A stretch of 64,000 nucleotides of DNA. Origin: Eledone cirrhosa (taxonomy: Eukaryota). Positions within the stretch are counted from its first letter, which is position 1. The number at the start of each line of letters is the position of its first letter. The stretch spans positions 277,636,001 through 277,700,000 of the forward strand of contig OZ024742.1 in the NCBI GenBank assembly GCA_964016885.1, written 5' to 3'. Position numbers and translations under genes: made by a program. This document shows, in pieces, positions 903-19,299 of this stretch. The notes under the pieces are model-generated. The model was not told the origin of the DNA. It ran no database searches and saw nothing but the letters and a program-made list of their open reading frames with translations.

Positions 903-1605
903 ATAGGATTTCGCTTCAAGCATAGCTTTATACAATATGTATAAATATTTTGTATCTCCAAAGAAATACAGTTTTAGGAAGCCGTAGCTATGCAAACACC
1001 GGGGGGCTAACGCCCTCTGGTGATGTCCAGCAGAAGCAAGGGGGACAACCGTCTAAGCATTTCAGGCTTAACTGGCCTTCGTCAGAACGGTCCCTCCCAC
1101 CGCTTGCGACTGATGGACTAGAACACAGCTGAAAATATATACTTTTCTCGTCTGTGTAAATGAGGTGATTAATCTCATTTGCATATGAAGCTGCATAAGT
1201 TGGCTATACAATATGTATAAATATTTTGTATCTCCAAAGAAATACATGTATTTCTTTGGAGATACAAAATATTTATACATATTGTATAAAAACTATGCTT
1301 GAAGCGAAATCCTATTTCTTTTTTATTATAAGTTGAGCCAACTTATGCAGTTTCATATGCAAATGAGATTAATCACCTCATTTACACAGACGAGAAAAGT
1401 ATATATTCTCAGCTGTCTTCTAGTCCAGCAGTCGCAAGCGGTGGGAGAGACCGTCCCGACGAAGGCCAGTTAAGCCTGAAATGCATAGACGGTTGTCCCC
1501 CTTGCTTCTGCTGGACATCACCAGAGGGCGTTAGCCCCCCGATGTTTGCATAGCTACGGCTTCCTAAATCTGTATTTCTTTGGAGATACAAAATATTTAT
1601 ACATA
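903..1605. mobile_element. Fold-back retrozyme-like element, family A (about 324-nt monomer)
   Basis: Inverted arms centred at 1246/1247; plus arm has terminal direct repeat at 1247 and 1571; HHR in each arm; TA-rich flanks. Confidence 0.75.
1048..1091 (-). ncRNA. Type I hammerhead ribozyme motif
   Basis: accgtt CTGACGA aggc-cagttaa-gcct GAAA tgct TA gacggt; mirror copy 1450-1493 (+) has CCGACGA and palindromic stem III ATGCAT. Confidence 0.8.
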
Positions 1606-1739
1606 TATATATGTATATATATATATATAATAAAGTATATATCCCTACACGCAAAAAGCGTCTAGGAACACATGTATTGCCCAACCATATGCCAATGTGG
1701 TTCAATGGCAGGTTAATAAATTAACGAGCGAGAACATAT

Positions 1740-2143
1740 ATAATCAAGGTTTAGCAAATAAGAAAAAGTTTTAAAATAAATTTTAAAAAATTCGCTGTAC
1801 TCACTGTCGTTCTGACTGCTACCAGTTATAGTGGTAGTAGACTGACCTCCCTGCCTTTGCTTCTATCTTTACACACGGTACTGGACGGAATTGCTTCCAT
1901 ATCATTTATTCTCATCTCGGGAACAATTTTGAGCGCCAGTTCGTAATTTGAACTCGGGAATTTTATATTCTCCGAGTCAAAAGATCCTTCTGACGAGAGT
2001 TTATATTTGCAATGGAAGGCCGCAAGGACTGTCCATTTATTTTTGAGACTCGAAACCGATTCGGTAAAGGTAACCATAGTGAGTACAGCGAATTTTTTAA
2101 AATTTATTTTGAAACTTTTTCTTATTTGCTAAACCTTGATTAT
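1740..2143 (+). mobile_element. HHR-bearing module with about 65-bp inverted ends
   Basis: 1740-1805 is the reverse complement of 2078-2143; TA-rich flanks. Confidence 0.7.
1986..2070 (+). ncRNA. Type I hammerhead ribozyme motif with extended stem II
   Basis: cctt CTGACGA gagttt...agactc GAAA ccg-att-cgg TA aagg: intact core, all three stems pair. Confidence 0.85.
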
Positions 2144-2254
2144 ATATATATATATGTGTGTGTGTGTGTGTGTGTGTATGTATGTCTATACCTACAGACA
2201 CATATATATATATACATACACACACACACACACATATATATATATTATAATAAT

Positions 2255-2468
2255 AATAGTTTCTTATATAAGCACAAGGCCAGCAATTTTTTGGGGAGGG
2301 GAAAGTCGATTAAATCGACCGCAGTGCGTGACTAGTGTTTTATATCGACCCAGTAAGGACGAAAGGCAAAGCTAACCTCGGCGGGGTTTGAACTCAGAAC
2401 GTTAAGGGCCGTAACTCTATACTGCGAAGCATCTTGTCCGACGCTCTACCGATTCTACTAATCCATTG
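2255..2468 (-). mobile_element. tRNA-derived SINE (main family)
   Basis: Similar to 35160-35380; B-box gagttcaaaccc on minus strand. Confidence 0.85.
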
Positions 2469-15490: not shown

Positions 15491-16023
15491 ACGGCCGTTG
15501 TGGTGGAGGCGGCGGCAGGGATATATGTCTTACTGTTACTGCTACAGTAATGTCAGTGGGGCTGCTGTCAGTGGGGCTGCTGCTGCTGATGATGATGATG
15601 GTGATGGTGGCGAAACATTAAAATCCAACATGGCGGAAGCCAGTAAAGTGCTGGGTCTTTCCGTTTAGTTTCCTGTCAAGATGGAGAAGAGGTTTTTATT
15701 ATTTATTCGCCCCTCCCTACCAACTCCACCCACTGCAAGGAGCTATCATAAAGGACCTATGATTATCTCTTTCCGTTTTCAGAGGCTGTGTGTATGTGTA
15801 TGTGTATGTGTATGTGTATGAATGAATGTCTTTATGTGTGTGTGTGTGTACACGTGCACACCTGCGTTTGTGTGTACGTCTGTTGCTATATATATATATA
15901 TATATATATATATATATATATATATGTGTGTGTGTGTGTGTGTGTGTGTACACACGTGCACGCCTGCTTTTGTGTGTCCACCTGTTGCTATATATATATA
16001 TATATATATATATATATATATAT

Positions 16024-16437
16024 ATAACGAAGGAAATGTGGTAAGGAACCAGGTGGACCATAACGCACCAAAGTACTCAATACTTAGGGTAGTAGAGTGG
16101 GTAATAGGAACAAGTAAGACCCCGACGGCTGAGCTCAAGCCGTTTCGACGGCTAATTCTGAATTAGCCGTCGAAACGGCTTGAGCTCAGCCGTCGGGGTC
16201 TTACTTGTTCCTATATATATATATATATATGTATATATATATAACAAAGGAATTGTGGTAAGGAACCAGATGAACCATAACGCACCAGAGTACTCAATAC
16301 TTAGGGTAGTAGAGTGGGAAATAGGAAAAAGTATGACCCCGACGGCAGAGCTCAAGCCGTTTCGACGGCTATTTCTGGACTGAAATAGCCGTCGAAACGA
16401 CTTGAGCTCTGCCGTCGGGGGTCATACTTTTTCCTAT
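16024..16437. mobile_element. Two diverged fold-back modules, each containing the 3' half of a hammerhead
   Basis: Hairpin centres near 16159 and 16378; stem-GAAA-cggct tgagctc agccg-TC-ggggtc. Confidence 0.75.
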
Positions 16438-18756
16438 ATATATATATGTATGTATATATATATATATATATATATATATATATTTATATATATATATATA
16501 TATATATGTATATATATATATATATAATATATATATACATATATATAATATAATATATATATGTGTGTGTGACTTTGTGTGTGTGTTAGTTAGTGCGTAT
16601 GTATCTGTGTAGCATAGAAGTTCGTATGGTTTTAAGTTCGATTCCCGGTAGTACGTTCTTGAGAAAAAACCCTTGATTTCATGGTGTTCTAGTCCACACA
16701 GAGCTGTACCTGTAATTAAAAGGGTCAGTTTTGTCACACATTATATTCCACTGAATCTTCCTGAGAGCCACGTTATGGAACGTACAGTTACTAAACATTT
16801 ATTTCACGAGCAAGCTGTTCCGGTGATTAAAAAAGAAAGAAAAAAGAACACGCATCGCTGAAATCGACTGAGGTTTAAAATTCACTTGTGTGTATTAATA
16901 CGTCGATGTGTTGGTATATATATATATATATTAACCTGTGTGTGTGTGCTCGTGCGTGTGTGTGTGTATGTCTATGCCTGTTAATATGTATGCGTGCATG
17001 ATTGTGTATGTGTGTGTAGGCCTATATGGATTTGTAACCGAATAAAAGGGTTAACTTGCTCACACAATCTCTCTCTCTCTCTCTCTCTCTCTCTCTCTCT
17101 CTCTCTCTCTCTCTCTATCTATCTATATTTTTATTTACATTTCAGGAATGTATAATTTTTCTTTCTTTCCTGTCATCTTTCTTCCTATTTTTCTTTCGTT
17201 AATCCATTTGTGTATTCCTCTGTTCTGACACTGTAACAAGCTGCTCTTGTCAGCGACCATATCAAGCAAGTTTTCTCACCGTTCGGAATATATATATATA
17301 TATATATATATATATATATATATATTGTGTCAAGGAGATGATACGAAAGAGTACAGTGAAGTACTCTGGTGTTGATGAGGTTAGATGTGTGCGGTTAACG
17401 TCTTATATATATAAATAAGACCTTTAGTGTTTGGTCCTGTTTAAAGGTTTCTGCCTGAGAAACAACTGCTGGAAATAATATCAATCTTTCTCTATGGAGC
17501 TTGACTGATCTCATATGTGTGTACATCTCGTTACTATCTTTTCTTTGTCTTATTTTGTCGTTCTATCTGTTCTGGTTGTTTTATTACACACACATCATAC
17601 CAGCAGTAAAACAATATTTTTCTGTTACACGATCAAGCATTTTAAAATTGTAGACTGAATTAAACCGTGCAAAACCATTTTGCTGGTTAGAGAGCTGATG
17701 AGGGTGAAGATGTGTGTGTGAACTTGTATTGTACATCGCCTTTCTTTATTTCTTTCTTCCAGTCGCTTTTATGCACCAACACACTTCTCCTTGTCCACCC
17801 GCCTCTCTCAGTTTTTTCTGTATTTCATCTATCTGTTACCCACATCGTGGATTGTCTTTCTGCCGACCACTGGCCGCTGATCTCTATCCACTGCGACATT
17901 TTTGCCCATCAATGTCATCGACAGCATTTAGCTGCCTTAACAGCTGTTCTAACGATGAGTTTTCTCATTTTTCTCTGAATTCAAATATACTTCGTCTCGA
18001 TCAAAGACAAGAATATTTATTCATCTGGTCCAGGTGGAGGAATAATCATCCACTTACATGTTAATTTATTGAGTAGGCTTTTCTGTTGATCTACCAAATG
18101 ATTGCTCATTGTCTAAACAGGCAGGAAATATGCCTGTATGTATGGGAGTATCTACTCGAATACGTGCGCCCCCCCCCACACAAACACATATATATATATA
18201 TATATATGTGTGTATGTATATACATATATATATATGCGTATATATATATATATATATATATATATATATATATATATATATATATATATACACACATATA
18301 TATATATGTGTGTGTGTATGTATGTATATATATATATATATATATATATATATATACACACATATATATATATATGTGTGTGTGTATGTATGTATATATA
18401 TATATATATATATATATATATATATATATATATATGTATGTATGTATTAGGAGCCCACTTGAATATATATCTATTGATGGTATACAAGCTCCTACATAAA
18501 TTGGTATAATTTCACCCAAATTGTAGGAATGCTATAATGAAACGAGACGTCCGTCCGGGAAGAGATATATTAGATATGTCTCATATGAAATAATACAGCC
18601 AATTTTCCACGCAATACTTTTAGTTACCACCCCGAACGCATAATTGGGAATATAATCACTTATTTCCTAATGTTTGTTGAGTGAGTTGGAATTTGGCCGG
18701 AGTATCGCTAAAAAGCTTTCTCCGATATTGTATTTATTATATATATATATATATAT

Positions 18757-19299
18757 AGAATAGAATGAAACGAAATTTCATTTCTCACTCTTAGTACGGC
18801 ACTTACTTAAATGTAAGTGTCTATGTATGTATACGTACATACATATATGTATACAGACGTACAGTATGCCGTACTAAGAGTGAGAAATGAAATTTCGTTT
18901 CATTCTATTCCATTTATCGTTTTCGGTGCGCCCGGCCGACTGAACTCACTCGATATGCAAATTAGGCTGCTCAGCTGTTAATATGCATAAGGAAAGTATA
19001 TACTTTCAGACGTTCAACCATCTGGCAGGAAGGTATACGATGCTGACGATAGCTAATAAGCTTGAAACTAGTACATCGTTCCTGTGTCAGTGTTGAACAA
19101 AAAGGTGACGTGGTTGCCTAAACACTGTATGGCGTAATTCGGGCTTGTTTACAAACAAACAAACCGAGCATTATAATAAATGTTCGGTAAACCGATACGT
19201 GTATATATATATGTGTGCATGTATGTATATATATACATACTACTGTACGTCTGTATACATATATGTATGTACGTATACATACATAGATACTTACATTTA
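18757..19299 (+). mobile_element. Family B retrozyme-like element: about 440-nt permuted monomer plus inverted arm 18757-18866
   Basis: Sequence order permuted relative to 34222-34509; HHR at 19037-19079; (TA)n both sides. Confidence 0.8.
19037..19079 (+). ncRNA. Minimal type I hammerhead ribozyme motif
   Basis: acgatg CTGACGA t agct-aata-agct t GAAA ctag TA catcgt; palindromic stem III ACTAGT. Confidence 0.9.

Follow-up and report, generated by a model that had tools for sequence, protein, structure and literature searches.

The window analysed here is a stretch of 64,000 nucleotides (nt) of the Eledone cirrhosa genome, and the two loci of interest within it are copies of families A and B. 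These are high-copy repeats of 320-470 nt that are non-coding and contain a type I hammerhead ribozyme motif, and they belong to a set of six families (A-F). Just upstream of the hammerhead, both carry an octamer and a TATA-like box that match, in sequence and nearly in spacing, those upstream of the host U6 and selenocysteine tRNA (tRNA-Sec) genes, and that likely form an internal promoter of the small nuclear RNA (snRNA) type. The octamer, ATGCAAAT, starts at 1357 in A and 18955 in B. AAAGTATATA starts at 1396 and 18993, placing the TATA at 1400 and 18997 (43 and 42 nt after the octamer), and the hammerhead cores lie at 1456 and 19043, within motifs with a palindromic stem III that begin at 1449 and 19037. 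An earlier note on this DNA had reported the motif pair, and its octamer and TATA coordinates and both spacings are all correct; the ribozymes that it placed downstream were recovered with our own type I descriptor, and A and B are indeed otherwise dissimilar (z=1.7 with the motifs removed). It overlooked the minus-strand copy of A, the palindrome at the TATA of B, the lack of a second same-strand hammerhead and the changed or broken ribozymes of A.

The family A locus is a back-to-back inverted pair. Its plus arm (1248..1606, + strand) comprises slightly more than one circularly permuted 322-nt unit, with its 3' end running into (TA)n, and abuts an inverted arm (903..1205, - strand). The plus arm contains the octamer block T-ATGCAAAT-GAG (1356..1367, +), a 12-mer that is also found upstream of host U6 and tRNA-Sec genes; a YCA-containing element at octamer +16 (1373..1377, +), which bears a weak likeness to an element of the host U1, U2 and U5 genes (p=0.20 together with the TATA); a TATA-like box (1400..1405, +; octamer +43) in the loop of a predicted RNA hairpin; a transcription start predicted from host snRNA geometry at 1430 (+); and the hammerhead motif (1449..1494, +; predicted cut after 1487), one core letter of which departs from the family majority. 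The inverted arm has its own octamer (1177..1184, -, starting at 1184), TATA-like box (1136..1141, -, starting at 1141) and hammerhead motif (1047..1092, -), with the core intact and the stem III palindrome broken. The family B locus is a single unit with a short inverted arm (18751..18866, -). Its plus arm (18822..19299, +), slightly more than one permuted unit of ~445 nt, likewise ends 3' in (TA)n, and carries the octamer block T-ATGCAAAT-TAG (18954..18965, +), the same 12-mer as in both tRNA-Sec genes and one of the solo U6 genes; TCAGC at octamer +16 (18971..18975, +), resembling the YCAGT element of host U1, U2 and U5 (p=0.03 with the TATA); a TATA-like box (18997..19002, +; octamer +42) at the centre of a perfect 16-nt palindrome (18992-19007); a start predicted from the same geometry at 19027 (+); and the hammerhead motif (19037..19079, +; predicted cut after 19073). 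Three further, 5'-truncated family B insertions, lacking promoter and ribozyme, lie at 4248-4451, 31704-31993 and 34220-34511.

Hammerhead calls throughout rest on our own descriptor, since Rfam returned no match in the window at gathering score; in e-value mode, microsatellite-driven microRNA matches were among the matches listed. In the window, the descriptor gave seven matches, compared to none or one for each of 10 shuffles; in a random 1 Mb composed of 100 evenly spaced 10-kb stretches of the genome, which measures 3.0 Gb and has many AT microsatellites, it gave 95, compared to none in one shuffle. When 199 hammerhead matches were grouped into 23 clusters, the octamer (at most one mismatch) was present upstream in most copies of three of them: B (56/64), A (23/27) and a new family, C (4/5). 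Type I hammerheads of other families, all without the octamer, occur in the window at 11757 (+), 8064 (-), 23198 (+), 41282 (+) and 41154 (-), and the hammerhead pair at 41050-41386 forms a long inverted repeat.

Families A and B are laid out like non-LTR (long terminal repeat) retrozymes mobilised by Penelope-like elements. Each unit has a type I hammerhead, the units are short, non-coding and tandem (criterion 150-450 bp), the insertion anatomy is Penelope-like, and autonomous elements co-occur. A first look found at least 1924 candidates for A and at least 3733 for B genome-wide, a first estimate of B density having been inflated by one 24-unit array. Unit periods are 322 nt (A), ~445 nt (B), 467 nt (C) and 341 nt (E), and no tandem period was found for D. 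Tandem units occur outside the window, that 24-unit B array in the random sample among them; one whole 10-kb stretch (G000:C28:110000001-110010000) is a B array with a period of ~422 nt, in which variant units follow one another in a recurring order and many octamers are broken. Among the best-matching loci, which exclude the window's own and, being picked for high identity, favour young copies, an inverted arm accompanies 18 of 28 A loci and 23 of 29 B loci. In both families, copies are circularly permuted and often exceed the length of a unit, so a tandem or circular template is required; their 3' ends are concentrated at two sites in each family and for the most part adjoin (TA)n. Circular folds of A, B and C are strong (z -3.6, -7.0 and -10.8). 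Contigs from four sequencing runs of unknown kind cover family B, though contigs cannot show starts, and the contigs from two other organisms (6-7) are too few to test motif conservation. An open reading frame (ORF) for a Penelope-like reverse transcriptase (RT) with GIY-YIG endonuclease is present in the window at 38506-40173 (+), its product being the one of nine scanned proteins with Pfam matches; no such ORF attached to A or B was seen at 57 loci, nor in 16 ORF flanks, a small sample. The ORF lies between repeat copies at 36896-37353 and 40382-40838, whose octamers (36923, 37516 and 40811) point the opposite way and lack the TATA-ribozyme geometry.

The octamer-TATA pair extends well beyond A and B; compared across family consensus sequences, as the earlier note had proposed, it recurs in six families. 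The block T-ATGCAAAT-B-AG is present in the majority sequences of A-F, followed by YCA at octamer +16, by a TATA-like box at octamer +43, 42, 41, 43, 42 and 47 (A, B, C, D, E and F), and by the hammerhead core at octamer +88 to +105. With the motifs removed, B and C are the sole alignable pair of the 15 (z=6.3), all others giving z of 2.6 or less, so that the six families represent five mutually unalignable lineages. D, E and F emerged from a genome-wide octamer-plus-core pattern, written to avoid A-C, which gave 40 matches against seven with the octamer reverse-complemented; these three families therefore contain the octamer by construction, though the pattern set no constraint on the octamer flanks or on the distance to the TATA. 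Thirty of the matches were fetched, comprising 17 from family J, four from B and the remainder from D, E, F, one A relative and one unassigned sequence. Family J was rejected, as its octamer offsets vary and its core sits in the 3' flank of ORF-bearing elements; its hammerhead-like core in the window (12164, -) does not fit the type I descriptor, and the elements concerned encode an RYVDD motif. Among the other seeds, I proved to be microsatellite only, and G and H were merged with F and A, respectively. Upstream of its TATA, family D contains three octamer-like repeats in tandem; its stem III consists of two pairs and a tetraloop rather than a palindrome.

In the random 1 Mb, the same sample in which family C was found, 17 of 20 matches to the 12-mer lie inside families A-F, the other three being in other repeats without the geometry; 15 of the 20 have a TATA-like box at +40..49 and 12 have a core downstream. 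Read in the other orientation, the identical 20 sites yield two TATA-like boxes and no core, and 200 permuted 12-mers gave 211 matches, of which 17 have a TATA-like box and none a core. Within families, octamer identity exceeds the family background in all five measured (E 0.94 versus 0.87, F 0.90 versus 0.82, A 0.98 versus 0.95, D 0.98 versus 0.96 and B 0.96 versus 0.93), by a small margin. Of the dispersed B copies in the random sample, 11 of 14 have an intact octamer, compared to nine of 24 units, themselves related rather than independent, of one long array; retention of the octamer in dispersed copies and its frequent loss in the array fit a need for the promoter in copies that have moved.

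The same block marks host genes. Two solo U6 genes and one U6 array carry the 12-mer at -76 to -78 and a TATA at -30, one U6 version having T where the others have the first A of AAAT. Across the host genes of RNA polymerase III (Pol III), the octamer stands 76-79 nt upstream of +1, and the TATA follows it by 46-48 nt in each of the five host Pol III promoter types. A search pattern derived solely from U6 returned 35 rows against one in the reversed control; its 32 distinct sites comprise 26 U6 genes, one U6 remnant, two tRNA-Sec genes (Rfam 77.7 bits), two family F copies and one chance chimera (L382), which was discarded. The tRNA-Sec genes were recovered unplanned, which identifies the block as a shared upstream element of host Pol III type 3 genes. 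The twelve U1, U2 and U5 promoters tabulated all lack the octamer; they have YCARY at -55 to -58 (12/12) and a TATA-like box near -30 (10/12). The octamer, which the earlier note read as an snRNA-type site, is therefore the upstream block of host U6 and tRNA-Sec rather than a distal enhancer of vertebrate type. Two U6 copies without promoter look like pseudogenes and were set aside, and twelve weaker U6 places, which gave no start-motif match, were left out of the U6 assessment. Host U1, U2 and U5 genes also share an AATTAAA-like motif near -90 and a common downstream 3' box-like motif. The U6 tandem array (G000:C19, about 31.78-31.84 Mb) has a period of ~1.8 kb, with a repeat resembling a short interspersed element (SINE) between TATA and U6 in some units.

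An octamer-to-TATA spacing 4-6 nt shorter than in host U6 genes, together with a weak match to the element of host U1, U2 and U5, suggests that families A-E are likely transcribed by RNA polymerase II (Pol II). In all five, YCA lies 25-27 nt before the TATA, the same distance as in host U1, U2 and U5 and within the 24-28 nt by which a YCAGT element precedes a TATA-like box. From this shared distance, starts are predicted at octamer +72/73, the choice between +72 and +73 having been made after inspecting the sequences. The predicted starts fall on an A in each of A-E, 16-28 nt before the core, and leave stem I intact in folds of A-D and F. Those at 1430 and 19027, which the earlier note had already proposed, agree with host snRNA gene geometry, and remain predicted positions. 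A matrix from 13 host Pol II promoters gave p=0.10 for C, 0.003 for D and 0.07 for E, beside the values for A and B above, and p=0.02 for F at a different offset. The host-like downstream 3' box motif is absent from the A, B, C and E monomers, as read-through would require. The U6-like geometry (spacing 46-48 nt and CCT at +15) is not found in A-E, which have spacings of 41-43 nt and no CCT; only some F copies show it. T-runs, which would stop Pol III, occur inside the units of A (T6), B (T4) and C (T4-T5). Family F, with the U6 spacing (47) and a T-run after the ribozyme, is possibly transcribed by Pol III. Small differences in the upstream element are described as deciding the polymerase in the PSEA/PSEB system of insects (PMC1761439).

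The arrangement is best read as a promoter: A and B are hammerhead repeats of non-LTR-retrozyme type that carry the octamer-plus-TATA element of host U6 and tRNA-Sec genes, likely as an internal snRNA-type promoter, a reading to which we assign a probability of about 0.65. The thousands of repeats with this pair just upstream of a hammerhead are accordingly candidates that likely drive their own transcription, as the earlier note had suggested for each monomer; recurrence in six families and the match to host genes strengthen that proposal, and its functional part is still read from sequence. Several observations weigh against it. Most hammerhead clusters (20 of 23) have no octamer in most copies, 17 of the 30 fetched pattern matches belong to a family with incidental octamers, and only A, B and C were found free of bias, as the pattern behind D, E and F demands the octamer. 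The within-family excess of octamer conservation looks significant only in E, and the kinship of the B array units tempers the contrast with dispersed copies. Taken one family at a time, A-E resemble the Pol II element weakly, with matrix scores of 1.0-12.6 for the elements compared to 12.1-24.1 for left-out host genes, and their combination of octamer and 41-43-nt spacing occurs in no host gene among U1, U2, U5, U6 and tRNA-Sec. The octamer-TATA region forms stronger predicted hairpins in the elements (z -2.0 to -5.6, five of six) than it does in the promoters of host genes (z -2.2 to +1.5), so selection at the RNA level acts on this region too. No autonomous Penelope element with an octamer-TATA promoter was found in 16 ORF 3' flanks. 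Neither window locus has a second same-strand hammerhead, and neither is tandem. Lastly, transcription, cleavage, circle formation, the Penelope partner and the polymerase are all deduced rather than observed.

Coincidence in an AT-rich, (TA)n-rich genome could in principle produce such pairs, TATATA being common, the window holding eight octamers and one family having many incidental ones; yet the orientation and permutation controls (cores downstream of 12/20 sites versus 0/20 and 0/211), the 40 genome-wide matches against seven with the octamer reversed, and the identity of the 12-mer with that of host genes make it very improbable, and the permutation control and the U6-pattern search largely refute it. 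A fairly unlikely alternative is that the motifs persist because of RNA structure, or as the relic of a captured U6-type promoter, and that transcription is read-through from host promoters. Both motifs do lie in predicted hairpins, the TATA of B is a perfect palindrome, most hammerhead families have spread without an octamer, and the long B array tolerates its loss; a 2020 review also describes plant and metazoan retrozymes as seemingly promoterless and proposes read-through (PMC7761336), plant retrozyme LTR promoters having been reported since. However, the strands that pair with the motifs in the hairpins vary from family to family, yet the 12-mer is constant, including where it is mispaired; the neighbouring sequence has diverged beyond alignment, and the identical 12-mer stands in host promoters, upstream of +1. 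It is unlikelier still that the promoter is real and all families use Pol III in the manner of U6, yielding short RNAs terminated at the first T-run and full monomers only by leaky termination. In its favour, the 12-mer occurs at U6 and tRNA-Sec and at none of 12 Pol II snRNA promoters; family F has a spacing of 47, a predicted G start (octamer +77), a T-run after the ribozyme and two copies that fit the full U6 pattern; and in A and B, a T-run adjoins one of the two sites at which 3' ends cluster. The 41-43-nt spacing of A-E, about half a helical turn below the 46-48 nt of host Pol III genes, argues otherwise, as do the internal T-runs: these would generally halt Pol III before the promoter was copied, yet the copies hold the promoter and exceed unit length.

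Under the promoter reading, a replication cycle can be proposed. Host factors would initiate transcription some 72-73 nt downstream of the octamer and 16-28 nt short of the ribozyme core; where units are in tandem, the polymerase, likely Pol II in A-E, would read on into the following unit. The hammerheads, likely acting as dimers via the palindromic stem III, would cut out a monomer with the promoter inside it, the monomer would likely be circularised, and a Penelope-like RT/endonuclease would copy it for more than one round into (TA)n. An upstream promoter is normally lost on retrotransposition, whereas reverse transcription of more than one unit would put it back upstream of the ribozyme. 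Circularisation of retrozyme RNA with RtcB is described for other retrozymes (PMC7229834). The view of the earlier note that tandem copies express and process themselves may thus apply to tandem units elsewhere, but the window loci are inverted or partial single units that could not release a monomer by themselves; probably only tandem loci could serve as source elements, and neither window locus is likely to be one. More tentatively, and on balance doubtfully, a clade of animal retrozymes may have captured a host upstream snRNA promoter, shifted the spacing from a Pol III to a Pol II arrangement and kept the promoter by way of RNA circles that contain it, with F as the original Pol III form; some 50,000 promoter blocks, a rough extrapolation from 17 per Mb, would then stand against a few dozen host genes.

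The promoter of newt satellite 2 reportedly includes an octamer. This hammerhead repeat is reported to have an internal Pol II promoter of snRNA type (Coats, Zhang and Epstein 1994; PMC2220036) and is, by analogy, a precedent for the arrangement proposed here. It is one amphibian family, compared to six families in five lineages in E. cirrhosa, whose element differs in having a TATA box, in matching the host Pol III type 3 upstream block and in being dispersed with inverted arms. The schistosome hammerhead satellite and the terminal-repeat retrotransposons in miniature (TRIMs) have promoters of gene-internal types, whereas the element described here precedes the start, so that its survival would depend on a template that is tandem or circular. 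Both resemble A-F as non-autonomous elements with borrowed small-RNA promoters, namely a Pol III promoter in the satellite and tRNA or 5S promoters in the TRIMs Helenus, Ajax and Cassandra (PMC2220036, PMC10886601). Metazoan non-LTR retrozymes, as described by Cervera and de la Pena (2020; PMC7229834) and by Li, Clavereau and Pollet (2026; 10.64898/2026.07.22.740005), share the unit size, the type I hammerhead, the dispersed and tandem occurrence, the strong circle folding and the co-occurrence with Penelope-like elements. The present families, known here from DNA alone, differ from them in carrying a conserved, host-matched promoter element; text searches of these two sources returned no element promoter, and the preprint's supplements could bear on promoter claims. 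Penelope-like pseudo-LTRs with minimal hammerheads have in common with A-F the palindromic stem III, the partial tandem or inverted structures, the (TA)n targets, and a promoter and start within the repeat (PMC4209133, PMC8557442), though no ORF is linked to A-F. Relative to host genes, the 12-mer block and TATA are those of U6 and tRNA-Sec and the YCA-to-TATA distance is that of U1, U2 and U5; unlike any host gene examined, A-E join the octamer block with the shorter spacing. Literature searches, from whose coverage most subscription papers were absent, returned no report of cephalopod retrozymes, nor of a host-matched U6-type element across retrozyme families.

The 2020 review assumes read-through as the source of the high RNA levels of animal retrozymes. 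The six families yield base-precise predictions of starts, motifs and polymerase. They would extend the lone newt case to another phylum and suggest a general means by which retroelements could retain a promoter upstream of the start. The U6, tRNA-Sec, U1, U2 and U5 promoter elements of this genome, for which the literature searches returned no printed description, are defined in the process and are useful for guide-RNA expression.

Some further repeats were encountered. A 310-nt hammerhead array and one additional hammerhead family (L110, L026) lack the octamer and have a YCAGT element 26-27 nt before a TATA-like box, as in host U5; for the array, the U5-like element and spacing gave p=0.04. 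Within the window, a repeat of ~590-nt period, in which the descriptor found no hammerhead, occurs as three tandem units at 22529-22973 and 32407-34134, and a dispersed SINE-like family of 150-220 nt is present at 2247-2465 and about ten other places.

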